The notes beneath the pieces are model-generated. The model had not been told where the DNA came from. It was given only the letters and a program-made list of their open reading frames with translations, and ran no database searches. Position numbers and translations under genes: made by a program. From positions 29,351-43,624 of the forward strand of contig JAXINV010000008.1 in NCBI GenBank assembly GCA_034190465.1: a DNA stretch of 14,274 nucleotides, written 5' to 3'. This document shows, one piece after another, positions 916 through 14,274 of the stretch. Within the stretch, counting starts at the first letter, position 1. Every line of letters starts with the position of its first letter. This DNA is from Candidatus Asbonarchaeum danakilense (GTDB lineage: Archaea; Nanohalarchaeota; Nanosalinia; Nanosalinales; Nanoanaerosalinaceae).

Positions 916-2115
916 TCACACCCCGCCGGCAAGGTCCCTGATCCGGTCACGGCCCAGGTAGCCGCCAACGGCGACGACCAGCACAGCGCCAGCGAGCAGG
1001 GGGACAGGCAGCCCGCCGCCCGTGCCCGGCTGCAGCGGGACCTCGACCGTCGCCGTCTCCGTGTACGTCGTCGTGTCCTGCACACCGCGGATCTCGACGT
1101 CCAGCAGGTAGTCCTTGATCGCCGCCCCCTGCTCCGCCGTGACCTCGAACACCGCCGTGCCGGTCATGCCTGGTTCCAGCGTGCCGACGTACTGCGAGGC
1201 CGATGCGTAGCTGAACGGCATGTCGCTGCTGTCAAGCACCCGGACACGGGTCGCCGTCGCCTGCTCGTTGCCCACGTTCTTCACCGTCACGCGGAGCGGG
1301 CCCGTCTGCCCGGCGGTCAGGTTGCTCGACACATCGACCACACGGAACTGCGGCCGGCCCGCGATGTATGTCTGGAACGACGTCGCCTCCCGGTGCTGCG
1401 TGTCGTCCGACCAGTACAGCGACGCATCGACCGTCGCCATACCTTTCGTCGCGTTCGGCAGGATATCGACCGTGAACGACGCCCGCTTTACCTCACCGGG
1501 CTGGATCGTGCCCAGCGCCTCGCGGGTCGTGAAGCTGGACGTCGCACGGAAGGACGACGGCAGTTCCAGCTGCAGGACGACGTTATCGGCCGCCTCCTCA
1601 CCGTTGTTGACCGCCTCGACGGTTATCGTGGCGTCCTCCATGTCTGCCGTCAGCGTCGACGGCGCGGTGGACAGCCCGGCCAGGTTCAGCTCAACGTCCT
1701 GGCTCTGGACCTCGACCGGAATCGTCTGCCGGAACGTGACATCGCCCTGCGAGACCTTGACGACGAAATCGTTGCTGCCGTCCGGCGCGTTGTCAGCCAC
1801 CAGCACCTCCGTCGAGATGTAGTACGGCTGGCCCGGCGCCACCTGGCCGAGGTGGTAGGTGCGCTGCCGGTCAGGCTTCAGCGTGAACGGGAAGCTGTCC
1901 ACGATCGTGACCGTTACGTTGTCAGCGATGGCGTTGCCAGTGTTGCGGACCTTAAACGATATGTCCGCATCCTCCCCGGCCTGGACCGGGACAGGGTCCG
2001 TCGTGATGAGTGTTGTATCGAGGTTTGTCGTTGGTCCTGTTGCCGCGCCGGCCGCTCCTGCAAGGAGCAGCACCAGCGCCACCGTCGTGAATGCTTTCAT
2101 GTGCATAGTATTCAC
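916..2115 (-). CDS. COG1361 S-layer-family / Ig-like repeat surface protein with signal peptide and C-terminal membrane anchor
   Basis: N-terminal signal peptide (MKAFTTVALVLLLAGAAGA). Three beta-rich repeats with VxNxG motifs (VRNTGN, AVNNGE, VKNVGN) and LGxIxPG-type motifs (LGQVAPG, LGTIQPG, VGTLEPG). C-terminal TM helix followed by basic residues. The GTG start overlaps the upstream TGA; the true start could be ATG 2106 or 2100. Confidence 0.8.
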   Translation of the reverse strand: MNTMHMKAFTTVALVLLLAGAAGAATGPTTNLDTTLITTDPVPVQAGEDADISFKVRNTGNAIADNVTVTIVDSFPFTLKPDRQRTYHLGQVAPGQPYYISTEVLVADNAPDGSNDFVVKVSQGDVTFRQTIPVEVQSQDVELNLAGLSTAPSTLTADMEDATITVEAVNNGEEAADNVVLQLELPSSFRATSSFTTREALGTIQPGEVKRASFTVDILPNATKGMATVDASLYWSDDTQHREATSFQTYIAGRPQFRVVDVSSNLTAGQTGPLRVTVKNVGNEQATATRVRVLDSSDMPFSYASASQYVGTLEPGMTGTAVFEVTAEQGAAIKDYLLDVEIRGVQDTTTYTETATVEVPLQPGTGGGLPVPLLAGAVLVVAVGGYLGRDRIRDLAGGV

Positions 2116-3266
2116 CCATTCGTGATCGCCGAGAGCGTGAAGCCCTGTGCCTCATCTCCCGTGAAGTATCTATCATACAGCACCATGGCGGCCGGTATCA
2201 CCGTCAGCGCCGCCAGGTACGCCATCGTCGTCGTCAACGTCAGCAGGATTCCGAGCGAGGACAGGAACGTCACCCGCCCCACACTGAGCGAGAGGAAACC
2301 GATATTGGCCGCGATCAGCCCGACAGTCATCGGCGTGATGACCCCCTGCAGCGTCTCCGCCAGCGCCTGCTGAATCTCATGCTGTTCCCGTTCCTCGATG
2401 TACCGGGCGATCGGCTGGATCCCGAAGTCGATCGCCACACCGATCCCCATCGACAGCGCCCCCGACGTCGCCGGGCTCATGTTCATCCCCAGCCAGCCGA
2501 AGATGCCGAACCCGGTCGTGATGCCGAACACCAGCGTCAGCAGCGATGTCAGCCCGTAGAACAGCGACCGGAACAGCAGCACAACCACCAGCATCACACC
2601 GAGCAGCGCCGCCGTGCCGGTCACCCCCATCGTGCGCTGGGTCTGCCGCTGGAACGCCTGGTCGATGTACGGCTGGCCCGTGTAGCCGACCTCCAGCCCT
2701 GCCGGCCGGTCGTGGGCCGTCACCGTCTGACTGATCAGGTCCGCCATCTGCAGCTGCTCCTCAGGTGTCAGGCCGGTCGTCGTCGCGCGGATCAGGGCGG
2801 CACGGTAGTCCGGCGAGATGTACTGCTGCCACCGCCCCGCAGGCAGCTCAGCAAGCGCCTGCTGGACCTGGCGGGTGCTGGACGGGATGTCGTCGAACAG
2901 GTCGGTCGGCGACGAGACAGCTGTCACCGCATCATAGGCCGCCAGGTCGTCCGCCACCGCGTCCATGAACCTGAGCGCCCGAGGATCCCGGATGTCGCGC
3001 ACCTCCGTCGAGTTCGGGACCGAGGGCGCGACCCGGACAAGTATCGTGTACGTCGTGCCCGCCGTCGTGTCGAACTCCGCGTTGATCGTGTTGAACGCCT
3101 GCATCGCCGGCACCGAATTCGGCAGCAGATCCTCCTGACTCTGCTGCACCGTCTCCACCTTTGAAGCCCCCGATGCAAGGGCGACGGTCACCAGGACGAC
3201 CGCGAGCAACAGCATCCCCGGCCGCCGTGCCAGCAGCCCAGCGTACCGTTCCGTCGGTCGTGTCAT
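2112..3266 (-). CDS. MMPL/RND-family transporter, half-size subunit (1+5 TM)
   Basis: N-terminal TM, extracytoplasmic loop, TGQPYI motif, then 5 TMs with GIGVAIDFGI. Start placed at ATG 3266, which has an ATGA overlap with the upstream stop and a GAGGTGG RBS. Confidence 0.85.
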   Translation of the reverse strand: MTRPTERYAGLLARRPGMLLLAVVLVTVALASGASKVETVQQSQEDLLPNSVPAMQAFNTINAEFDTTAGTTYTILVRVAPSVPNSTEVRDIRDPRALRFMDAVADDLAAYDAVTAVSSPTDLFDDIPSSTRQVQQALAELPAGRWQQYISPDYRAALIRATTTGLTPEEQLQMADLISQTVTAHDRPAGLEVGYTGQPYIDQAFQRQTQRTMGVTGTAALLGVMLVVVLLFRSLFYGLTSLLTLVFGITTGFGIFGWLGMNMSPATSGALSMGIGVAIDFGIQPIARYIEEREQHEIQQALAETLQGVITPMTVGLIAANIGFLSLSVGRVTFLSSLGILLTLTTTMAYLAALTVIPAAMVLYDRYFTGDEAQGFTLSAITNG

Positions 3267-4351
3267 CCGTCCCACCTCTCATACTTGATGATCAGCGCCG
3301 GCGTCAGGACGAGCGCCGCCGTCAGGGTCAGCCCTTCACCCAGCGCCAGCGTTATGCCCAGGTCCCGCATGAACGAGATCGAGGCCAGCAGCAGCGACAG
3401 GAAACCGACCAGGTCCGTCGTCGAGGATCCGAGGACCGCCTTGCCCGTGTTCGGCACCGCGGTCATGACCCCGTCCTCGACGCCCTGCTCGTCCGTCTCC
3501 TCCATGATCCGCTCCGCGATGAACGAACCGTACTCCACACCCAGACCGAGCAGCATCGACCCGAGCGCGATCGTCGCGATGGTCAACGGGATACCGAGCA
3601 GGCCCATCGCGCCCAGCGTCCAGATCAGCCCGAGGAACAGCGGGGCGAACGTCGCCGGGCCGTAGAAGACGCCGCGGATCCCGACGAGCAGGGCGAGGAT
3701 AAGCACCGAGGCCAGAGCGATGATCCGGACCGTGTCCTGGATGAGGACATCGGACAGCGCGTTCCGCATGACGGGGACCCCTGTCGGGCGGATGCTGACA
3801 CCGGGGTAGACCGGCGCCTCGTCGATGTTCTGTTCGATCAGCCGGGTCGCCTGCCGGACGTTCTGCTCCGTCATCTCCGCGTTCAGCTCGACGAACATCG
3901 TTGTCGCGGTGAAGTCCCGGTTGATGAAGCTTCCCGGTGCGCGCTGCAGCACCGCCTTCACCTGCGCCTTCGACCTCGGAGTCGTGTTGAACAACGAGGC
4001 CATGGACGAGACGGAGGCGATCAACGGCTCACGCTGCAGCTCCTGCTCGATGAATTCCATCGTCCGGAGCAGCCGCGGGTCGCGGACGTCCGTGACGAAC
4101 GACGGCTGCTGTGGCCGCTCATTGACCTGGAACAGGATGATGATCGCGTTCGTGTTGCCGAACTGCGCCTCGACCCGGTCCTGCGTCCTGATCGGATCCA
4201 GCGTGTCCGGGAGACTTGCCTGGAAATCAGTCATCAGCTCGATGGACGGGACCCCGACCGCCAGCACCGCTGTCAGCAGGATGCAGGCAGCGATGACGTG
4301 GTCCGTGTGGTCGAGCTGGATCCGGGCAAGGAGTCTGAGCGGTGAACGCAT
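3263..4351 (-). CDS. MMPL/RND-family transporter, half-size subunit (1+5 TM)
   Basis: Same architecture as its neighbour: TGVPV, GLGVEYG and SSTTDLVGFLSL motifs. Start moved from 4396 to ATG 4351 (MRSPL) because the longer frame runs through the TATA box/operator; TATA lies 25-32 nt upstream of 4351. Confidence 0.85.
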   Translation of the reverse strand: MRSPLRLLARIQLDHTDHVIAACILLTAVLAVGVPSIELMTDFQASLPDTLDPIRTQDRVEAQFGNTNAIIILFQVNERPQQPSFVTDVRDPRLLRTMEFIEQELQREPLIASVSSMASLFNTTPRSKAQVKAVLQRAPGSFINRDFTATTMFVELNAEMTEQNVRQATRLIEQNIDEAPVYPGVSIRPTGVPVMRNALSDVLIQDTVRIIALASVLILALLVGIRGVFYGPATFAPLFLGLIWTLGAMGLLGIPLTIATIALGSMLLGLGVEYGSFIAERIMEETDEQGVEDGVMTAVPNTGKAVLGSSTTDLVGFLSLLLASISFMRDLGITLALGEGLTLTAALVLTPALIIKYERWDG

Positions 4352-4375
4352 GCGGGATGTGAGGGACGCCGCAAT

Positions 4376-4383
4376 CTTATAAA
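4376..4383. promoter_or_regulatory. Bidirectional TATA box (CTTATAAA / TTTATAAG) between mmpL and tetR
   Basis: Single AT-rich box 25-32 nt from the mmpL ATG (4351) and 23-30 nt from the tetR ATG (4406). This is the spacing expected for leaderless haloarchaeal transcripts. Confidence 0.65.
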
Positions 4384-4384
4384 C

Positions 4385-4400
4385 CTGAACGAACATTCAG
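4385..4400. promoter_or_regulatory. Putative TetR operator, CTGAAcgaacaTTCAG inverted repeat
   Basis: Imperfect 16-bp palindrome (CTGAA-N6-TTCAG) between the TATA box and the tetR start codon. Confidence 0.6.
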
Positions 4401-4405
4401 TCAGT

Positions 4406-4954
4406 ATGGGTGAGGGAAGCGACACCCGGGACCAGATCATGGACGCCACCTACCGGGCGCTCTGCGAACACGGCTACGCCGACCTGACGATCGAGCGGAT
4501 CGCCGACGAGTTCGAAAAAGGCAAGTCCGTCATCTACTACCACTTCGACGACAAGGACGACCTGATGGTCTCATTCCTCGACCACCTGCACGACAGGATC
4601 AGCAAGGACCTGGAGGGCGTCGACTGCGACTGTCAGCAGTCGCTGGACAATATGCTGGAGATGGCCCTGGGGCTGAACGACGAGGAGACCTGGGCGTTCC
4701 GGACCGCACTGTTCGAGATGCAGTCCGACGCGCCGTACAACGATGCACTTGCCACACGGTTCCAGGACATCCACGACCAGCTTATGGACCTGTTCGCCGA
4801 CATCCTCGACGACCTCGACGTCCAGGACAGCGAACAGGAGGCGGAGATGCTGTTCTACACGATCGAGGGCATCGTCTCCACCCGGATCACCGAGGGCCGG
4901 CAGGACGACATGGAGGCGCTGAAGGACCGGCTCGTGGAGCGGTACGCCCGGTGA
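4406..4954 (+). CDS. TetR/AcrR-family transcriptional regulator
   Basis: N-terminal TetR HTH (TRDQIMDATYRALCEHGYADLTIERIADEFEKGKSVIYYHFDDKDDL); divergent from the MMPL transporter genes. Confidence 0.95.
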   Translation: MGEGSDTRDQIMDATYRALCEHGYADLTIERIADEFEKGKSVIYYHFDDKDDLMVSFLDHLHDRISKDLEGVDCDCQQSLDNMLEMALGLNDEETWAFRTALFEMQSDAPYNDALATRFQDIHDQLMDLFADILDDLDVQDSEQEAEMLFYTIEGIVSTRITEGRQDDMEALKDRLVERYAR

Positions 4955-5003: not shown

Positions 5004-5822
5004 ATGGACGCGAACCCGTACCTCCAGCAGCCGGGGCCGCACTGCGCCGCGCAGCAGACCGTCTCACAGGTGCACTACGCGCCGCGGGACGACCACGTCG
5101 ACGAAAAGCTACGGGCCGCGGACTACGTCCTCGACCAGCTCGACGTCGAGACACCGGCGTTCTTCTACGACAGCCTGGCAGAGGTCAAGGTCTCGACCGA
5201 GGCCGGCCCCGACCCCGAGGACTCCACGCTGCTGGAGGAGAAGGACCGCGGACCGTACGACCGGGAGAGCTACGTCGAGAGCCACGCGGTCAAGGCACTG
5301 CTCGGCGACTTCGATGTCCACAGCGGCAACATCCAGGTCGACGCCAGCGGCCGCTTCTACCCGATCGACATCGACGCCACAGGGAAGATGCCCGTCGAGT
5401 ACGTGCACGACAACCTCGATGTCGACGCGCTCAACCGGTACGGCGCGATCAGCCGGGTGCAGGACGCCGCGTTCGAGAACAGACCGCCGCGGATGGGGGA
5501 CGTGACCCGGACGATCGAGGACCTGGCCAGTGACATCGACCTCGAGGAACTGGAACAGCAGTACCGGGAGGACGACAGGATCGCCTACGACCGGGACCGC
5601 ATCGAGGACGACACGCTGGACCACGGCAGGGACCGGCCGGAGCTCACGCAGAACTACATCAACGACCTCAGCCCGGCAGAGACCATCGTCCGCAACATCG
5701 AATTCGTGCGGGACAAGCGGCTCCGTTCCGGCCTGAGCAGGCACGTCCCCCTCCACGAGGCCGACGACATGCTCGACCAGGCGAAGGAACGGCTGGACGA
5801 CCTGGCGGACAACATACTTTAA
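5004..5822 (+). CDS. Hypothetical protein with an atypical kinase core (HipA / PI3-PI4-kinase-like)
   Basis: ALLGDFDVHSGNIQV matches the DxHxxN catalytic loop and FYPIDID matches the metal-binding ID(x) motif. Acidic composition and GAC/GAG codon usage support this frame. Confidence 0.6.
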   Translation: MDANPYLQQPGPHCAAQQTVSQVHYAPRDDHVDEKLRAADYVLDQLDVETPAFFYDSLAEVKVSTEAGPDPEDSTLLEEKDRGPYDRESYVESHAVKALLGDFDVHSGNIQVDASGRFYPIDIDATGKMPVEYVHDNLDVDALNRYGAISRVQDAAFENRPPRMGDVTRTIEDLASDIDLEELEQQYREDDRIAYDRDRIEDDTLDHGRDRPELTQNYINDLSPAETIVRNIEFVRDKRLRSGLSRHVPLHEADDMLDQAKERLDDLADNIL

Positions 5823-6724: not shown

Positions 6725-7405
6725 TCACAGGATCTCCACGATCTCATCCTCGTCCCTGTTCGGCCGGTACAGCTTCGCCGGCCGGTGGGACACGTTCTCC
6801 GTCTTCTCGCCCGTGTACTCCACAAGATCCAGCTTCTTCACCTTCTTCCTGAAATTCCGCTTATCGAACTCCCGGTCGAACACCGTCTCATACGTCTCCT
6901 GCAGCTCCGTCAATGTGAACCGGTCCGGCAGGAACGAGAACACCGCCGGCGTGTACTCCAGCTTCCACCGCAGCCGCTTGATCGCGTACTCCGCGATCTC
7001 ATCGTGGTCGAACGCCAGCTCCGGCAGGTCGTAGGCCGAATGCCAGGCAGCCCGGTCATCATCCAGCTCCACCTCCGTATGGTTCACCAGCGCAAAGTAG
7101 CTGACCGTGATGACACGGGTCCGCGGATCCCGGTCCGGGTCGCCGAACGTGTACAGCTGCTCCAGATAGACGTCCGTCACACCCGTCTTGTCCTCCAGGA
7201 CACGGGTCGCCGCCGTCTCCAGCGACTCCTGCATATCGATGAACCCTCCCGGCAGCGCCCACTGGCCCTCGAACGGCTCATGGCCGCGCTCCACCAGCAG
7301 CACCTTCAGATCGTCATCAGTCACCGTGAAGATGATCGTGTCAACCGCCACCGATGGTCGGTCGAACGCCGACGGGTCGTAGTCCTCCGGTACCTCCTCA
7401 GGCAT
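6725..7405 (-). CDS. nrtR: NrtR-family transcriptional regulator (N-terminal Nudix, C-terminal winged HTH)
   Basis: PSVAVD, WALPGGF, YLEQLYTFGDPDRDPRTRVITVSY, LAFDH, FTLTELQETYE, DKRNFRKK and HRPAKLY are hallmark NrtR motifs. Start set to ATG 7405 because the GTG at 7426 lies inside the operator. Confidence 0.93.
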   Translation of the reverse strand: MPEEVPEDYDPSAFDRPSVAVDTIIFTVTDDDLKVLLVERGHEPFEGQWALPGGFIDMQESLETAATRVLEDKTGVTDVYLEQLYTFGDPDRDPRTRVITVSYFALVNHTEVELDDDRAAWHSAYDLPELAFDHDEIAEYAIKRLRWKLEYTPAVFSFLPDRFTLTELQETYETVFDREFDKRNFRKKVKKLDLVEYTGEKTENVSHRPAKLYRPNRDEDEIVEIL

Positions 7406-7408
7406 ACC

Positions 7409-7429
7409 TTCGTGTACGAACGACACGGA
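7409..7429. promoter_or_regulatory. NrtR box upstream of nrtR (autoregulation): TTCGTGT-ACGAACG-ACACGGA
   Basis: 21-bp palindrome with a GT-N7-AC core, between a TTTTTTA box (7436-7430 on minus) and the ATG at 7405. Same arms as the boxes at 12666-12743. Confidence 0.85.
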
Positions 7430-7444
7430 TAAAAAACAGGGCGG

Positions 7445-7915
7445 TCACTCCCACATCGACACGAACCCGTCCGCATACCTGTCCAGCAGCCGTCCACCGA
7501 ACCGGCGGATCGCCGTCACAGCCGAGCCACTCGGCTCATACCGCCTCGCACGGCCGTCCCGCTGCACCAGTACAACATCGTCAGCAGCCAGCGCCCGGAG
7601 ATGCTCCGATACCGACGACAGACTCAGCTCCACGCGTTCCCCGATCCCCGACATCGTCAGCCCTGGCTCACGGTCCACCACATGCAGGAGCAGGCCACGG
7701 CTCTCATGGTTCAGCGCTGCCAGCGCATCATACAGCTCCGTATCCACCTGCGCCGGAAAGATACGTCGATACCCGCGGATCCTCTCCTCGTTTAGCCCAT
7801 CGATCCGTCTAAGGTGGTAGTCCAGCGTATTCACCGAACAACCCACCTCCCGCTGCAGCTCCCGGAAATGGATCCCCGGCCGGCCGTTCACCGCGTCGAT
7901 GATCTGTGCCTTCAT
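7445..7915 (-). CDS. Tandem winged-HTH transcriptional regulator (ArsR-like / COG3398-type)
   Basis: Two wHTH units: PGIHFRELQREVGCSVNTLDYHLRRI and PGLTMSGIGERVELSLSSVSEHLRAL...RDGRARRY. ATGA overlap with the upstream membrane gene. Confidence 0.85.
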   Translation of the reverse strand: MKAQIIDAVNGRPGIHFRELQREVGCSVNTLDYHLRRIDGLNEERIRGYRRIFPAQVDTELYDALAALNHESRGLLLHVVDREPGLTMSGIGERVELSLSSVSEHLRALAADDVVLVQRDGRARRYEPSGSAVTAIRRFGGRLLDRYADGFVSMWE

Positions 7916-8178
7916 CGTACCGTCCCCCAGAAAAACAGCAGGATGATGACCAGGTTCAGCCCGTGCACCAGCGCCGTCAACAGCGGCATCGTCACGTAGA
8001 ACACACTGGCGAACGTCAGCACCGCCTTCACGGCAAACACGCCGAACGCCGAGCAGACGTACAGGAACTTCCGCGACCGCTTCATCCGGTACGCGCGGAT
8101 CGAGACCACGAACAGCCCCGTGGCTAACAGCAGCGTGGCCGCATGGACGATATAGTCGATCGTCGTGGCCTCGATCAT
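7912..8178 (-). CDS. Small 3-TM membrane protein (88 aa), coupled to the wHTH regulator
   Basis: Three hydrophobic helices with a basic loop (SIRAYRMKRSRKFLYV). ATG 8178 has a GGAGG RBS and TTTAAAAA at 8214-8207, so the 8223 start is unlikely. Confidence 0.75.
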   Translation of the reverse strand: MIEATTIDYIVHAATLLLATGLFVVSIRAYRMKRSRKFLYVCSAFGVFAVKAVLTFASVFYVTMPLLTALVHGLNLVIILLFFWGTVR

Positions 8179-8253
8179 CCCCCCCTCCAGAGATACCGCG
8201 GCAACGTTTTTAAACACCGGCACTCCCCGCAGAAGGGTTTACACGTATCAACA

Positions 8254-8280
8254 GAACAGTCAGCCTGAACAGTCAGCCTG
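8254..8280. repeat. Perfect 13-bp tandem duplication GAACAGTCAGCCT x2 spanning the NAD kinase stop codon
   Basis: Directly read: gaacagtcagcct gaacagtcagcct g. Confidence 0.9.
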
Positions 8281-9133
8281 TCACCACCCGGAGCGGCTCA
8301 TCCGCCAGCTCCACCGTCGCGGTCGCGCCGCGCGGGAACTCGAACAGCATGTCCTCACGGTCACAGTCTATGCTGATGATACCGTCCACGTTCATCTTCG
8401 ACCGGAGCTCCAGCGACCCATCCTCCCCGACGCGGCCCCTGTTCAGCTCCTGGTCCCCGTCACGGACCGGCTCGCGCTCGATGTACCGCAGCTCATCAGC
8501 ATCGTTCGGGAACGTCCCCTCGTTTCCTGGCACGTTGCCGTACCAGCCGGTCGAGCCCGCACCCGTCGACACGACCAGCCCGCTGTTCATGTGCTCTTCC
8601 TCGTACTCACCGTCACTGATCTCGTACCGTGCAACCTCCATACTGTGCCGGTCCGCCACGAACACATCGTTCAACGCGTACGCCGTCTCCCCATCGTAGT
8701 GGACCGCCGCACGGCTCCACTCCTCAAGATCAGGATCGTGCAGTGCATCGTCCAGCGCTTCCTCAATCTCATCCGCCCCGTACTGGCACAGCGCACCGTG
8801 GCTGTTCTCATCCGACCGCACAGGCACCATCGGCGTATCATCCATCACATAGTGCGACGCATCCAGCGCCGTGCCGTCACCGCCAAGACTGACGACCAGA
8901 TCGTACGCCACGAAGTCGTCGTCCGCCTCCTCAGGCACCCGCACCGTGTCGTAGTCGACGCCTTCCGCCTCCAGCCACGACTCCACAGTCTCCAGCGACT
9001 CGTAGTGGTTCTCGTGGCCCTCCACGATCGGCTCGTACTCCTCGTCCGGCAGTTCCTCAGCCGGATCACCGTCCTCCTCGCGGTAGTGGTCCAGCGTCGT
9101 CTTCTTCGTCGCGATCATCACCTGCTCAGTCAT
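8273..9133 (-). CDS. nadK: NAD(+)/NADH kinase
   Basis: VVSLGGDGTAL (GGDGT), ALNDVFV (NE/D motif) and SGLVVSTGAGSTGW (Gly-rich motif); GGAGGT RBS. Confidence 0.88.
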   Translation of the reverse strand: MTEQVMIATKKTTLDHYREEDGDPAEELPDEEYEPIVEGHENHYESLETVESWLEAEGVDYDTVRVPEEADDDFVAYDLVVSLGGDGTALDASHYVMDDTPMVPVRSDENSHGALCQYGADEIEEALDDALHDPDLEEWSRAAVHYDGETAYALNDVFVADRHSMEVARYEISDGEYEEEHMNSGLVVSTGAGSTGWYGNVPGNEGTFPNDADELRYIEREPVRDGDQELNRGRVGEDGSLELRSKMNVDGIISIDCDREDMLFEFPRGATATVELADEPLRVVTG

Positions 9134-9216
9134 CGATACTACCTCCGTTCTCCGTCACAATCTGTGGGTCCATGCTTCTTGTGTCCTACGGAAGGGACCG
9201 GCCGACCCGTCCAGGG

Positions 9217-10017
9217 TCAACCCGCCAGCTCCTCCTTCCGCTGCTTCAGCTGTTCGACGTACATGGGGAACTCGCCAGCATGCCGTTCCAGATCCACATC
9301 ATCCATCTCACCGTTGAGGTACAGCGTTTCGAGCTGCTCGCGTCCATAGCTCTGCTGTGGTTCTGCTATTCCCTCAGCGAAGCTCCGTCCATCCTCGATC
9401 TCCCAGGTCGTAATGAACTCGACACCGCGGTCCTGCCAGTCCTCGAACGCCGCATCGCGGTCATCCCCGTCCAGCTCATGGATCGCGTCCTCCACGACAT
9501 AGACCTGATCGACATCGGTATCCTCAACGAAGTAGTCCACCGCCTGGTCGACGCAGATCTCCGTGACCACGCCGTAGATCGCGACCGCGTCCGGGTCGAC
9601 CGCCTCGACGTAGTCAGCCAGGTTCGGGTTGTCCCGGACATCCGGCGACCGCTTCTCGAAGATCACCTGGCCGCCGTCCGCAGCGTAGTCAGCGACCTCC
9701 GCCTGCTGGTCGTCGGTCAGCTCCTGCTCCGGCACGTACAGCGGATCCCGGGTCGTCGCATCCAGCTTCTGCTGGCCCGGTGTGCCGTCGACGCAGTGCG
9801 GCGGGTAGACCTCGAACTCAGGATCGTCAGGCTCGTGGGCGTCCACCGAGCCGCCGTGGTAGACGTCGCTGTCCGCCGCGTACTCCGTCAGGCGTGCCAT
9901 CCGGTCGACGCGGTCATCCGCGCCGGGTACCGCGAGTTTGCCGTCAGGGTCGATGAAGTCGTGCTGCGTGTCGACGTCCCAGAACAGGACGTCGTCCAGT
10001 GTTGTTGTGTCTGTCAT
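9217..10017 (-). CDS. pncA: Nicotinamidase (isochorismatase-family cysteine hydrolase)
   Basis: DVDTQHDF (catalytic Asp), DAH and PPHCVDGT (metal ligands), FEK (Lys) and GVVTEICV (Cys). Lies in an operon with pncB; GAGGTGA RBS. Confidence 0.9.
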   Translation of the reverse strand: MTDTTTLDDVLFWDVDTQHDFIDPDGKLAVPGADDRVDRMARLTEYAADSDVYHGGSVDAHEPDDPEFEVYPPHCVDGTPGQQKLDATTRDPLYVPEQELTDDQQAEVADYAADGGQVIFEKRSPDVRDNPNLADYVEAVDPDAVAIYGVVTEICVDQAVDYFVEDTDVDQVYVVEDAIHELDGDDRDAAFEDWQDRGVEFITTWEIEDGRSFAEGIAEPQQSYGREQLETLYLNGEMDDVDLERHAGEFPMYVEQLKQRKEELAG

Positions 10018-10028
10018 GGTTGCTCACC

Positions 10029-10610
10029 TCAGTATGTGTCCTGCGCATCCGTGTACCGTTCTGCAACCGCGAGCACGTAGTCCTCACCGAGCACGTCCAC
10101 GGGATCGGCTCCTTCCTCCACCGCCGCCCAGTCGTCCTCGTCCAGCTCGTACGGCGAGCCGTCGTGCCACGGCCCGATACCGCTGATCTCGATGTCGTCG
10201 TAGCCCTCCTGCTTCAGGAACCGTTCCAGGTCGCGGGACGCCTCCAGCCGGATCTGCTCGCGCTCCGCCTGCTGCTTCACGTCCTCGTACAGCTCGCCGT
10301 CGGTCGCGTCCTGCTGCTCCAGCGCCGCCAGCTCGACGCGGGCCTCGCCCAGGTACTGCTCCACCGCCTCTGCCGGCTCCCGGTCATCGTCCCAGATCAC
10401 GTCCCATTCGCGTTCATGGATCCGGAACCGGTCGCTGAAGTACTGCAGCCCGATGCCCTCCGCCTGCTCGCGGGACAGGCCGTACTCCTGCTGCAGCCGG
10501 TCGCGGAACGCCTCCGTGTACTCGTTCTGCTTCCTGCCGCGGGCCATCCAGTCCGCCTCGTACGGGTGGGTCAGGTCCACCACGATCGCGTCGTCGTGCT
10601 CGTCTGTCAT
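10029..10610 (-). CDS. Hypothetical acidic protein (193 aa) in the NAD salvage operon
   Basis: Fills the gap between neighbours with 10-11 nt spacers; GAGGCGG RBS; acidic halophile-type composition. No motif recognised. Confidence 0.8.
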   Translation of the reverse strand: MTDEHDDAIVVDLTHPYEADWMARGRKQNEYTEAFRDRLQQEYGLSREQAEGIGLQYFSDRFRIHEREWDVIWDDDREPAEAVEQYLGEARVELAALEQQDATDGELYEDVKQQAEREQIRLEASRDLERFLKQEGYDDIEISGIGPWHDGSPYELDEDDWAAVEEGADPVDVLGEDYVLAVAERYTDAQDTY

Positions 10611-10620
10611 CCCGACCGCC

Positions 10621-11028
10621 TCAGCCGTTCACCGGGTACCGGATCGCCGGTGGCTCGTCCTCCAGGTTTGTCAGCCGCTCCGCCAGCAGGTCGATGTGCT
10701 CCGCTGTGCCGCGGTAGATCGACGCCAGATAGTCCTCCGGCGACCTGCAGCCGTCCCAGTCGTGGTAGCCGCCGCCACGGGTCTCGACGCCGTCAGGGGT
10801 CAGCACCTCCTCGTAGTCGAAATCCATGCGGCCGCGTTCCTCGACCTCCAGCAGCGTCACCGGGTCATCGATCTCCTCCTGCAGCTCGCCGAGTGCCTCG
10901 ACCACCGTGTCCCTGTATTCTTCACGCGCGTCCTGGCGCTGCTGCCTGACATCCTCGTACAGCTCATCGATCGCGTCCAGCCGCGCTTCCTGCCGGTCGA
11001 GCTCGCCCCTGTAGTCGTCGAACTGCAT
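10621..11028 (-). CDS. Hypothetical acidic protein (135 aa) with a predicted N-terminal coiled coil
   Basis: Starts 1 nt after the pncB stop; AGGTGA RBS; helical heptad-like N-terminus. Confidence 0.8.
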   Translation of the reverse strand: MQFDDYRGELDRQEARLDAIDELYEDVRQQRQDAREEYRDTVVEALGELQEEIDDPVTLLEVEERGRMDFDYEEVLTPDGVETRGGGYHDWDGCRSPEDYLASIYRGTAEHIDLLAERLTNLEDEPPAIRYPVNG

Positions 11029-11029
11029 C

Positions 11030-12262
11030 TCAGATCACCTGCTCCATGTGTTCGTCGATGTAGGTTTCCATCGCCTCGATGTCCTGCTCCCGGCCGGTCT
11101 TCGCCATCGGCTCGCCGTCCACCGCGTAGATGTCGGCCGTGCAGTGGATGCCGTCGTCGAAGCTGCCGGCACCGACACCGTGGAACAGGTCGTACGACTC
11201 GCCGAACTTTTCCTGGCTCTCCTCGCGGTACTCGTGCTGGGCATCGACGAACGCCTCCGCCTTGTCCGGATCGCCGAAGCCGGAGGACAGGATGATCTCC
11301 GTGTTGTCGCCGTATCCCTCCTCGATCAGGCGGTCACGGAGCGCCTTCACCGGCTCGATGCGGACACCTGTCCCCGTACGGTAATCGTCGGCCGGGTCGA
11401 CGTCGGCCGGGTCCATGCCCTGGGCGTGGTTCTCGCCACAGGTGTCGACGCGGAACTTCGCGGTCCAGTCGTCGCCGTCCCGCTCCTCGTCAAAGTAGCG
11501 GGCCACGTCCAGCGCGTCGTCGATCTCCCGGTTGAACGTGTCGATCAGCGTCGTCCGGGGGATGTCGTCGTCCATGTGCTCGTCGAACAGCTCTGCCGTC
11601 CTCCGGGTGGCGTTCGCCGGGGAGTAGTCCTCGGAGCCGGCCAGCGTCAGCGTCAGGAAGTGCGGCGTGGTGCCGACGCCCTCCGCATCGATGTTCGATG
11701 AACCGACATCCGTCGAGGTCTGGACCGCACCCGCGTCCAGCACACCGGCAGCCAGTTCATCGTCCTTCGACCAGTGGTAGTGCCGGGCGCCGAAGTAGAG
11801 GAACGGCACGTCCGCCTCGTCGTACAGCTCGGCGACCTTCGCCGCTTCCTCCCGCATGTCCTCGTAGGTCGGCGTGTCGACGCCGTTGGCCTCGGACAGG
11901 TGGTGGGACATCGCGCCCAGGTACATCGTCTCCAGCTCGACCACGTCCTGCGCCTTGCCCTTGAGCACCATCAGCGGGTCCTTCGATCCGAACTCGTCCT
12001 CCTCCGTCAGGTAGAGCTCGCCGCCGTTGTCGGAGAACGCCGGCTCCGCGTACTCCTCCACGATCGCCTGGGCCTCGGCCAGCGCCTCGTCCGGGATCTC
12101 GCCCTCGCCGCGTGCGAAGACCTTGACAGCGACGTCGGGGTTGGTCTCATCCGCCTCCAGGATCTGCCGGCTGCGCATGAAGTATTTGTCCGTGTACGGT
12201 CGGTGGTCGTCCGGCAGCTCGTCGCGGAACCGTTCCACCAGCTCGTCGTGCTCGTCGTCCAT
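11030..12262 (-). CDS. pncB: Nicotinate phosphoribosyltransferase (type II PRTase)
   Basis: YTDKYF, ELETMYLG, FGARH, GTTPH (phospho-His position), LIDTFN, RVDT, IILSSGF and TADI motifs; GGAGGTG RBS; same operon as pncA. Confidence 0.88.
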   Translation of the reverse strand: MDDEHDELVERFRDELPDDHRPYTDKYFMRSRQILEADETNPDVAVKVFARGEGEIPDEALAEAQAIVEEYAEPAFSDNGGELYLTEEDEFGSKDPLMVLKGKAQDVVELETMYLGAMSHHLSEANGVDTPTYEDMREEAAKVAELYDEADVPFLYFGARHYHWSKDDELAAGVLDAGAVQTSTDVGSSNIDAEGVGTTPHFLTLTLAGSEDYSPANATRRTAELFDEHMDDDIPRTTLIDTFNREIDDALDVARYFDEERDGDDWTAKFRVDTCGENHAQGMDPADVDPADDYRTGTGVRIEPVKALRDRLIEEGYGDNTEIILSSGFGDPDKAEAFVDAQHEYREESQEKFGESYDLFHGVGAGSFDDGIHCTADIYAVDGEPMAKTGREQDIEAMETYIDEHMEQVI

Positions 12263-12265
12263 CGG

Positions 12266-12655
12266 TCACACCTCCCCGTACTGCTCGACCAGGTCCTCGA
12301 CCTCGTCCGCCCAGTCGTGGAGCGCCGCGTGTTTGTCCATCAGGACGCCGTCAGGGTCGGGCAGCGCCGGGATCTCGTCCAGGTCCGCCTGCTCCGCTTC
12401 GAGGTACGAGGTCAGGGCCTCGCCGACCGCCACGTCGCCGGCGTACATCCAGTAGGCGTGGTCGCTGGATGCGTTGCGCTGCGATTCGCGGGCGTCGGCC
12501 AAGTAGTCCTCCGCCTGGTCCAGCGCCTCCTCAGTGTCCAGCCCGCGGTACTTGGCCACGGTGCGGCTCGTCTCGTTTGGATCGCCGGTGATGACGTACT
12601 CCAGCGTGTCAAAAAATGCCTCCCGGTCCGGTTCGGTCGTGTCATACTCGTCCAT
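12266..12655 (-). CDS. Hypothetical acidic protein (129 aa), first gene of the NAD salvage operon
   Basis: ATG 12655 is preceded by AGGTGA (the GTG at 12664 is part of the RBS); ends 3 nt before pncB. Confidence 0.8.
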   Translation of the reverse strand: MDEYDTTEPDREAFFDTLEYVITGDPNETSRTVAKYRGLDTEEALDQAEDYLADARESQRNASSDHAYWMYAGDVAVGEALTSYLEAEQADLDEIPALPDPDGVLMDKHAALHDWADEVEDLVEQYGEV

Positions 12656-12665
12656 CGCGATCACC

Positions 12666-12708
12666 TTCGTGTTTTTCTAACACTAACTTAGTGTGTTCTT
12701 TACACGAA
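12666..12708. promoter_or_regulatory. Tandem pair of NrtR boxes: TTCGTGT-TTTTCTA-ACACTAA (12666-12686) and TTAGTGT-GTTCTTT-ACACGAA (12688-12708)
   Basis: Two 21-bp GT-N7-AC palindromes 1 bp apart, between the TATA box and the RBS of the NAD operon. Confidence 0.9.
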
Positions 12709-12712
12709 AAGC

Positions 12713-12720
12713 TTTATATA
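12713..12720. promoter_or_regulatory. TATA box TTTATATA / TATATAAA in the divergent intergenic region
   Basis: Consensus archaeal TATA readable on both strands, with a BRE-like CGAAAA immediately upstream on the plus strand. Confidence 0.75.
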
Positions 12721-12722
12721 GG

Positions 12723-12743
12723 TAATTGTAGATTCGACACGAA
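12723..12743. promoter_or_regulatory. Third, weaker NrtR box: TAATTGT-AGATTCG-ACACGAA
   Basis: GT-N7-AC core with a perfect right arm (ACACGAA) and a degenerate left arm. Confidence 0.65.
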
Positions 12744-12815: not shown

Positions 12816-13013
12816 ATGAGCGAGGATCTTGACCAGCTGGCGGACGCGGTCGAAGACTGGAAACAGGCGAAATACTTCGTCGAGCGGCTGACACAGTCCC
12901 TGTTCGACGCCGACGTCGACCCCGAGAAGTTCAAAGACGAGTTCGTCCAGGACGGCCACCCGGTCGACCAGAAACTGTTCGACCTCGCCGCCGACCTCGC
13001 CGGAGAACGATGA
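12816..13013 (+). CDS. Small acidic hypothetical protein (65 aa) coupled to the photolyase
   Basis: GAC/GAG-rich codons; the stop overlaps the photolyase ATG (ATGA at 13010-13013). Confidence 0.75.
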   Translation: MSEDLDQLADAVEDWKQAKYFVERLTQSLFDADVDPEKFKDEFVQDGHPVDQKLFDLAADLAGER

Positions 13014-14274
13014 CAGGCATCGTCTGGCTGCGGCGGGCGATGCGCGTCCACGACAACACCGCGCTCGTCCAGGCCGCGGAGGACCACGACGACGTCATCC
13101 CGTGCTACGTCGTCGACGACGAGCTGTTCGACAGCGCGACGCTGGGCTACCCGCGGGTCAAGTTCTGGCACGACGCGCTGCACGACCTCCAGGACCAGCT
13201 GCAGGAACAGGGCAGCGACCTCGTCGTGCGGCAGGGCAGCCCGGTCGAGGAACTCCAGCGGATCGTCGACGAGACGGACGCTGACGCGGTCTACCACAAC
13301 CGGGACTACACCCCGTACGCCAGGGAACGCGACGAAGCTGTCGGCGGGGCGCTCGACGTGCCGGTCACGAGCTGCAAGGACCTCGTCATGTTCGAGAAGG
13401 ACGAGATCCTGACCAACAGCGGCACACCGTACAAGGTCTACAGCTACTACCGCGACAAATGGTTCGACCGGGACAAGCCGCGGCCCGCGGAGCCGGACGG
13501 CTTCACCACGCCCGACCTCGACAGCGACGACATACCCTCGGTAGAGGCGCTGGGCCACGAGGAACCCGACGACTTCGACTGGATCTGGGACGCGTCGAGG
13601 GACGGCGCACAGCAGCGGCTCGAGGAGTTCAAGGAGAAGATAGCGCACTACGACAACCTGCGGGACCTGCCCGCGCGGGACGCCACGTCACGGCTCTCAC
13701 CGCACCTCAAGTTCGGGACCGTCTCGGTGCGGGAGGTGTTCTGGGAGGCGGAACGGATGCGCGGCCGGCTGAACGACGCGGACGGGGTCACCACCTGGCA
13801 GGAGGAGCTGGCGTGGCGCGACTTCTACGTCCAGGTCCTGTGGCACTGGCCGGAGACGACCGAGCAGGCGTTCCTCGAGCAGTACCGGGGCATCGACTGG
13901 CACTGGGACGACGAGCACCAGCGGATGTGGCAGGCGTTCCTGGAAGGACAGACTGGCTTCCCGTTCGTCGACGCCGGGATGCGGCAGCTGCGGCGGACGG
14001 GCTGGATGCACAACCGGCCGAGGATGGTCGTCGCCAGCTTCGCCGCCAAGGATCTGCACGTCGACTGGCGGAAGCTGCACGAGCACTTCAAGACCTGGTT
14101 CGTCGACGCGGAGATCGCCTCCATGGTTGGCGGCATCCAGTGGGCGTACAGCATCGGCACCGACGCCCAGCCGTACTTCCGCGTCTTCAACCCGTGGACC
14201 CAGGGCGAGGACCACGACCCCGACGGCGACTACATCCGCGAGTTCGTGCCGGAGCTGCGTGACGTGCCGGACGA
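13010..14274 (+). CDS. phr: Deoxyribodipyrimidine (CPD) photolyase / cryptochrome family protein; 3' end runs off the window
   Basis: Hand translation: MTGIVWLRRAMRVHDNTAL...TSRLSPHLKFGTVSVR...WQEELAWRDFY...GQTGFPFVDAGMRQLRRTGWMHNRPRMVVASF...GTDAQPYFRVFNPWTQGEDHDPDGDYIREFVPEL. Absent from the ORF track because there is no stop in the window. Confidence 0.95.
   Translation, partial: MTGIVWLRRAMRVHDNTALVQAAEDHDDVIPCYVVDDELFDSATLGYPRVKFWHDALHDLQDQLQEQGSDLVVRQGSPVEELQRIVDETDADAVYHNRDYTPYARERDEAVGGALDVPVTSCKDLVMFEKDEILTNSGTPYKVYSYYRDKWFDRDKPRPAEPDGFTTPDLDSDDIPSVEALGHEEPDDFDWIWDASRDGAQQRLEEFKEKIAHYDNLRDLPARDATSRLSPHLKFGTVSVREVFWEAERMRGRLNDADGVTTWQEELAWRDFYVQVLWHWPETTEQAFLEQYRGIDWHWDDEHQRMWQAFLEGQTGFPFVDAGMRQLRRTGWMHNRPRMVVASFAAKDLHVDWRKLHEHFKTWFVDAEIASMVGGIQWAYSIGTDAQPYFRVFNPWTQGEDHDPDGDYIREFVPELRDVPD

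Follow-up and report, generated by a model that had tools for sequence, protein, structure and literature searches.

A putative NrtR regulon for NAD salvage genes in the nanohaloarchaeon Candidatus Asbonarchaeum danakilense

The locus analysed in this work raises the question of whether a transcriptional repressor of the NrtR type might control the supply of nicotinamide adenine dinucleotide (NAD) in an archaeon, and through which promoters, signals and target genes it would act. The window, i.e., the whole stretch of 14,274 nucleotides (nt) from Candidatus Asbonarchaeum danakilense (contig JAXINV010000008.1, positions 29,351 to 43,624), represents a contig end in a genome of 1.2 Mb, with 61% GC and 92% complete; its proteins are acidic, and those close homologues of its NrtR for which a source is named are nanohaloarchaeal. 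Nanohaloarchaea rely on haloarchaeal hosts (PMC10266531). A preliminary description of positions 6725-12743 had proposed a self-contained regulon in which NrtR, acting as an ADP-ribose (ADPR) sensor, represses its own gene and a six-gene NAD-salvage operon through four palindromes. On the basis of the evidence reported below, we consider it likely that the NrtR-family protein and the four palindromes form a repressor circuit.

The regulator, its operators and the two promoters

The gene nrtR (6725-7405, minus strand) codes for a protein of 226 aa, which combines a Nudix domain (PF00293, 63.9 bits), bearing a degenerate Nudix box (RVLEDK), with a winged helix-turn-helix (HTH) domain (PF21906, 89.8 bits versus a cut-off of 27), and which matches the structures PDB 5BS6 (E 8e-46) and 3GZ5 (E 1.7e-38). 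The assignment of the regulator to NrtR is borne out by these domain and structure matches. The catalytic RExxEE motif is intact in 0 of the 11 nanohaloarchaeal rows of the alignment, versus 9 of the 10 rows from other DPANN archaea. The comparison with bacterial NrtR sequences that had been suggested beforehand yielded a phylogenetic tree in which the nanohaloarchaeal proteins form a clade in 50 of 60 bootstraps (59 of 60 when an Aenigmatarchaeota sequence is included); all the DPANN sequences, instead, fall into one clade in only 19 of 60, so that a single transfer of nrtR from Bacteria to DPANN archaea is unsupported.

The search for the 21-bp motif TTMGTGT-N7-ACACKAA, with up to three mismatches, recovered all four palindromes at the coordinates assigned to them previously. 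One of them (7409-7429, one mismatch) lies between the TATA box and the start codon of nrtR, whereas the other three, to which no strand can be attributed either, precede the operon: operator C (12666-12686, no mismatches) is located in the 5' leader, operator B (12688-12708, no mismatches) between the TATA box and the predicted start site, and operator A (12723-12743, two mismatches) over the position of the B recognition element (BRE). All four are intergenic, as had been stated, if nrtR starts at the ATG at 7405; the listed GTG start at 7426 falls within the box. Of the boxes, all of which had been placed between a TATA box and the start site, three lie downstream of a TATA box in the direction of the gene that they would regulate, but box A is located upstream of the operon TATA box.

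As far as the promoters are concerned, TATA-like hexamers in front of 840 open reading frames (ORFs) of the source genome peak at -30 from the ATG (66 at -30, 40 at -29 and 31 at -31), and Shine-Dalgarno (SD) sequences peak at -11. The TATA box of nrtR (TTTTTA, 7430-7435, minus strand) abuts the operator and begins at -30 from the ATG at 7405; since the box fills the gap between them, the nrtR mRNA is likely leaderless and the gene would be autorepressed. Relatives carry TTTAAA, TTTTTA or a close variant at the same position. The operon TATA box (12713-12720, both strands) reads TATATAAA towards the operon and TTTATATA towards the photolyase gene on its other side, and is conserved between boxes A and B in the relatives, as is the SD sequence GGTGA (12661-12665, minus strand), which abuts box C. 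The order of the elements is box A, 2 nt, TATA, 4 nt, box B, 1 nt, box C and SD, and the statistics on TATA positions predict a transcription start near 12690. A scan for sigma-70 promoters gave 0 sites. Two planctomycete loci (L090 and L103) exhibit tandem boxes likewise arranged after a TTGAC -35 element, so that the motif is unchanged from bacteria.

The significance of the boxes is modest if judged from the window alone: shuffling it gave a mean of 0.89 sites with at most three mismatches, and four sites were reached in 5 of 200 shuffles. In the whole source genome there are six sites with at most two mismatches, four of which are these boxes. A score matrix was then built from 23 boxes selected by hand in other genera on account of their position, omitting same-genus boxes and matches not upstream of nrtR or pncB. 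When the 1.2-Mb genome was scanned with it, the four boxes took the top four ranks, with scores of 21.6, 21.5, 21.0 and 14.3 bits; the next-best site scored 9.2 bits, and no further regulon member was found above this value. Among 20 block-shuffled genomes no site exceeded 18 bits, and sites above 14 bits occurred at 0.5 per genome; hence, its score by itself does not make the nrtR box significant, and the case for this box depends on its conserved position. Since the training boxes were found with the consensus derived from the window, the matrix test is partly circular, but the positions of the boxes and the genome profile are free of this circularity, the latter representing an independent test. 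Applied to 80 distant loci, the matrix is noisy (51 of 80 positive, versus 18-30 in shuffles).

Conservation of the boxes in nanohaloarchaea and beyond

The main comparison included 61 genomes, whereas phylum-wide counts refer to 70. NrtR-type proteins (at least 68% identity) are present in 11 of the 61 genomes, and two or more exact boxes, the threshold adopted here, occur in 10 of these 11 versus one of the 50 others, although kin among the compared genomes are not independent, which weakens the co-occurrence. The nrtR genome lacking two exact boxes (G060) has a contig end inside its nrtR; among those without nrtR, G027 has two boxes, one of them at a contig edge in an nrtR-promoter context, and G013 has one. 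A backwards control pattern matched in nine genomes. The operon-type pncB is found in 10 of the 61 genomes, all within the 11 harbouring nrtR, and none of the seven loci of an unrelated pncB type (7/70 genomes) carries a box. The scan of genome and relatives that had been proposed as a check, therefore, placed the four boxes on top and revealed a motif that tracks nrtR.

The layout is maintained over three families, with box-TATA-box-box-SD before the operon and TATA-box-start codon before nrtR, so that the boxes are indeed conserved upstream of the orthologous pncB and nrtR genes. The position of the nrtR box is kept in nine of the 10 nanohaloarchaeal loci with upstream DNA, the source locus included; in G002 nrtR closes the operon and lacks a box of its own. 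Seven of the 10 pncB promoters have three clear boxes, two have A and C together with a degraded B, and one has B and C, box A being thus present in nine. The proposal that NrtR controls its own gene and the operon through this motif is in agreement with these conserved footprints and with the finding that motif, regulator and pncB occur together across the 61 genomes, and we regard the specific binding of NrtR to the boxes, with ensuing repression, as very probable.

Outside this group, boxes precede nrtR or NAD operons (nadA, pncB) in six Woesearchaeota/Pacearchaeota-type loci, which are also surrounded by nadE, pnuC-nadR and ADP-ribosylglycohydrolase genes, and the same motif is found at the nrtR loci of Chloroflexota, Planctomycetota and Cyanobacteria. 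The winged HTH of NrtR was detected in 10 of the 70 genomes of the phylum, in 35 of 251 genomes of the phylum containing Woesearchaeota and in none of four control archaea. Three further observations concern these loci. In G001:C2 (L167:4293-4762), a box following a TATA box lies ahead of a free-standing Nudix hydrolase, whose Nudix box is intact and which probably belongs to the regulon as well. In L166 (G027:C125), a box-controlled operon, possibly decaying, contains two copies of the 135-aa family described below, a short pncA and a kinase gene that looks frameshifted, with no pncB seen. Lastly, the DPANN NrtR loci L059 and L076 contain ADP-ribosylglycohydrolase and nucleoside 2-deoxyribosyltransferase-like genes.

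Target genes, effector and pathway

The operon consists of six minus-strand genes separated by 1-11 nt, except for 83 nt, with an SD sequence and without a TATA box, before the kinase gene. The first one (12266-12655) codes for 129 aa without a family match, is absent from the relatives' loci and is unique to the source genome. The second (11030-12262) encodes a pncB-like phosphoribosyltransferase (PRTase) of the PRK08662/Thermoplasma type, a distant homologue (NF006415, 101 bits versus a cut-off of 243) whose only PDB matches are 2I14 and 1YTD; its clade has distinct invariant motifs (FGARHYH and DTCGEN) and an invariant GTxPH histidine, which we take to be the residue coupling ATP to forward synthesis in nicotinate phosphoribosyltransferases. 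The third (10621-11028) codes for a conserved companion of the module, recognised by its matches in relatives, i.e., a 135-aa protein made up of a long helix and a small beta domain. Strong matches to this family, for which the whole library yields 22 clusters, were obtained in 10 of the 70 genomes, nine of them carrying boxes; G030 and G050 lack it, and G043 (L179:1459-1920) represents the exception, with a member outside any NrtR locus. Its model (pLDDT 90.7) found no fold match (best E 0.4 with Foldseek, best Z 4.5 with VIA), and weak coiled-coil matches to long proteins were discarded as noise. The fourth gene (10029-10610) codes for 193 aa without a family match, present in two relatives of the same family, and the fifth (9217-10017) for a pncA-like nicotinamidase of the isochorismatase family (PF00857, 57.8 bits), whose best PDB matches are nicotinamidases.

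The last gene (8273-9133) encodes the only NAD kinase found in the source genome, which is probably of the NADK2/C5orf33 type: its profile scores 121.8 bits with human NADK2 versus 56.5 at best with canonical NADKs. GGDG, ND, Ser183 and Trp197 are present, with Thr where NADK2 has Lys317; C5orf33 is marked by Ser, Lys and Trp replacing the canonical Asp, Thr and Tyr (PMC3535332). Members of the family also stand next to nrtR in five further DPANN loci, and the family could have a bearing on how NADK2 arose. Overall, the description of the six genes as an NAD-salvage operon fits pncB, pncA and the kinase, the other three being without a recognisable enzyme.

According to the model that we favour, dimers of NrtR would be bound on either side of the operon TATA box and immediately after that of nrtR, and would let go upon binding ADPR or a close NAD breakdown product. 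Box A would hinder transcription factor B (TFB) as well as the TATA-binding protein (TBP), and boxes B and C, together with the nrtR box, would hinder RNA polymerase, as for LrpA and MDR1, whose sites downstream of TATA block its recruitment (PMC2995911). Once derepressed, the operon would yield PncA (nicotinamide to nicotinate), PncB (nicotinate and phosphoribosyl pyrophosphate, PRPP, to nicotinate mononucleotide) and the kinase (NAD to NADP). The source genome encodes Prs, a NadM-like enzyme, NadE and an NAD-dependent ligase; NadM, NadE and Prs can complete the route, and the operon might thus represent an inducible second entry beside another NAD cluster (G000:C1:9419-12702, L168), which is devoid of boxes and contains a TIGR01513-type pncB, a pncA-like gene and nadE, with a convergent nadM. 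Given this cluster, the genome has a salvage route besides the operon.

As for the signal, the residues of the pocket incline us towards ADPR as the main effector. Y9, F14, R40, K73 and R95 align with Y10, F15, R41, K76 and R98 of Shewanella NrtR (SoNrtR), that is, with five of six listed contacts, given a numbering offset of 3 inferred for the alignment; Y10, F15, R41, N43, K76 and R98 are among the ADPR contacts listed for SoNrtR (PMC4666351). The notion of an ADPR sensor is therefore sustained by the pocket, but not by the enzymes of the genome, as explained below.

Several points weigh against the model. The best NCBIfam match of NrtR, the equivalog NF050029 (171 bits, E 2.7e-50), is below its cut-off of 400, its best structural match, 5BS6, is the arabinose sensor AraR, and N43 of SoNrtR corresponds to H42, at a position that varies among orthologues. 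Effectors do vary in the NrtR family, given that AraR senses arabinose and NdnR responds to NAD (PMC4666351). The functions of PncB and PncA are putative, resting on distant homology. Prs is found in only two of the 70 genomes of the phylum and is missing from nine of the 10 module genomes, and NadE from six of the 10, three of which are single-contig. Finally, the four ADPR-producing families searched for (SIR2, Macro, ADP-ribosylglycohydrolase and Tpt1) were not found in the 92%-complete genome.

In a cell without an evident ADPR source, the same repressor and boxes might respond to a different effector, such as nicotinate adenine dinucleotide (NaAD), NAD(P)H, nicotinamide mononucleotide (NMN) or a ribose phosphate, an option that we deem possible, yet doubtful. 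The NAD-dependent ligase releases NMN, which speaks for it, whereas NAD+ also hydrolyses without enzymes, the search was restricted to four families and five of the six listed contacts are kept. The release of SoNrtR by NaAD, NADH, NADPH and NADP as well (PMC2330246) favours this option. The pathway gap, in turn, suggests that the module might be fed by the host, which would supply PRPP and amidation, or reversed, with PncB cleaving a host pyridine mononucleotide to give PRPP and PncA removing the base. Textbook salvage is possible in the source genome, but complete relatives lack PRPP supply and amidation by known families; host supply represents the simplest inference for this gap, and the reversed reaction a weaker one. 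The distribution of Prs and NadE is in agreement with such a scenario, as are the presence of NadM in 5/5 tested module genomes, the lack of PncC (none found in the source genome and 0/5 in those tested) and the PRTase motifs FGARHYH and DTCGEN. However, the source genome has Prs, NadM and NadE, G001 embeds nadE within the same operon, and the ATP-coupling histidine is invariant; moreover, the PRPP gap is phylum-wide, since genomes with the other pncB also lack Prs and 24/70 carry type-I PRTase domains. On balance, we regard a host-fed or reversed module as rather unlikely. In the phylum, 24/70 genomes with type-I PRTase domains and 22/70 with NadE were counted, many of them without any pncB. 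An even less probable extension is that NrtR senses the NAD state of the host, whose ADPR would switch on an operon using host PRPP or pyridine nucleotides; if true, this would account for the retention of the switch and pncAB in complete genomes that have neither Prs nor NadE.

Two other explanations concern the boxes themselves. Box A might also control the divergent photolyase through a two-way TATA box, linking NAD repair to ultraviolet (UV) repair. Indeed, TTTATATA followed by box A 2 nt further on resembles the nrtR geometry, no TATA box lies at -30 before the 65-aa gene preceding the photolyase, and a photolyase is found beyond the pncB promoter in five of the 10 module genomes, belonging to two families; in three of these genomes no more than a single small gene intervenes. 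This link appears tentative, as box A persists in loci with another divergent gene and the photolyase is a core gene (56/70), unlinked in three module genomes and preceded by its own TATA-like element at -31 in G014 and G028. Far more improbable is the possibility that the boxes are AT-rich palindromes that arose by chance, or that a different regulator binds them, e.g., the double-HTH protein encoded next to nrtR. The modest significance in the window and the nrtR box falling within the shuffle range are what it can draw upon, but the cross-genome profile matches nrtR, the double-HTH gene is absent from the relatives' loci, and the same motif recurs at the bacterial nrtR loci mentioned above. 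Hence, we retain the NrtR circuit as the preferred reading.

Relation to known systems and neighbouring genes

The circuit appears to be a further, well-supported instance of a switch that is already known, of which the repression and the sensing of ADPR are inferred parts. NrtR is listed as characterised in bacteria only, where its operator follows the rule of a 21-bp GT-N7-AC palindrome (PMC2330246). Bacterial regulons (PMC2330246; Shewanella SO1979, PDB 3GZ5/3GZ8; Synechocystis Slr1690; Roseiflexus and Blastopirellula pncA/pncB) share with it the Nudix and winged HTH domains, the degenerate Nudix box, the palindrome, tandem sites, autoregulation, pncA/pncB targets and an ADPR-type pocket. 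The archaeal one differs in its TATA/BRE promoters, its probably leaderless regulator gene, the location of a third box upstream of TATA, the presence among its targets of an NADK2-type kinase and of a lineage-specific gene without a recognised function, and its acidic halophilic protein. Bacteroides AraR (BT0354; PMC4666351, PDB 5BS6) belongs to the same family and shares R40, R92 and H134, but its ADP site is filled (F36, L67 and G89), with Leu and Gly where SoNrtR has K76 and R98; here H42, K73 and R95 are found, with NAD rather than pentose targets. The occluded nucleotide site and the sugar targets of the pentose branch (AraR/XylR) are thus both lacking.

Archaeal LrpA, MDR1 and Lrs14, the last of which blocks TBP/TFB, also have sites bordering TATA but belong to unrelated families and respond to unrelated signals. 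Bacterial-type regulators acting on archaeal promoters are the rule (PMC2995911). The biotin regulon of BirA, in bacteria and archaea (PMC5397151), and archaeal RbkR likewise represent cofactor regulons with an enzyme-derived sensor domain, but with another cofactor and fold, RbkR being a predicted activator. Human mitochondrial NADK2/C5orf33 (PMC3535332, PMC9245612, PDB 7R4J), described from animals and protists, is the best match of the operon kinase and shares GGDG, NE/D, Ser and Trp with it; the latter is shorter (286 aa) and has Thr for Lys317.

No archaeal NrtR regulon was found in the literature searched, a result that subscription papers and supplements could change. In the parts available, a survey of Sulfolobus Nudix proteins found no HTH (PMC10311068), a search for NrtR-type proteins that included archaeal RefSeq reported bacterial trees (PMC6800001), and the description of a cultured nanohaloarchaeon carrying PncAB mentions no regulator (PMC10266531); the existence of this culture implies that the question may be approachable. 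The locus would therefore provide a testable model for the transcriptional control of archaeal NAD supply, none having been found in print, and would indicate that reduced symbionts retain a metabolite-sensing circuit. The lack of Prs, of NadE and of ADPR sources suggests that metabolites pass over from the host; the incomplete pathway in the relatives and the NADK2-type kinase are, in our opinion, the parts most worth following.

As for the neighbouring genes, a double-HTH protein (7445-7915) and a DUF7471 membrane protein (7912-8178), both on the minus strand (7445-8178), have their own TATA box, no box and no homologue in the relatives' loci; they are outside the regulon. On the other side, a 65-aa gene and a DNA photolyase gene cut by the window end (12816-14274, plus strand) diverge from the operon and possibly share its TATA box. 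By eye, K148 of NrtR (LRWKLEY) is similar to K134 (LVAKLSY), the acetylated lysine of mycobacterial NrtR (PMC6800001). At 916-4954 of the window, a TetR gene diverges from the genes of two MMPL/RND membrane proteins and of a surface protein with CARDB/Ig domains. Finally, acidic ORFs without a Pfam match, at 5004-5822 and near 2860 in L169/L043, show by eye a kinase-like D-x-H-x-x-N...IDxD pattern.

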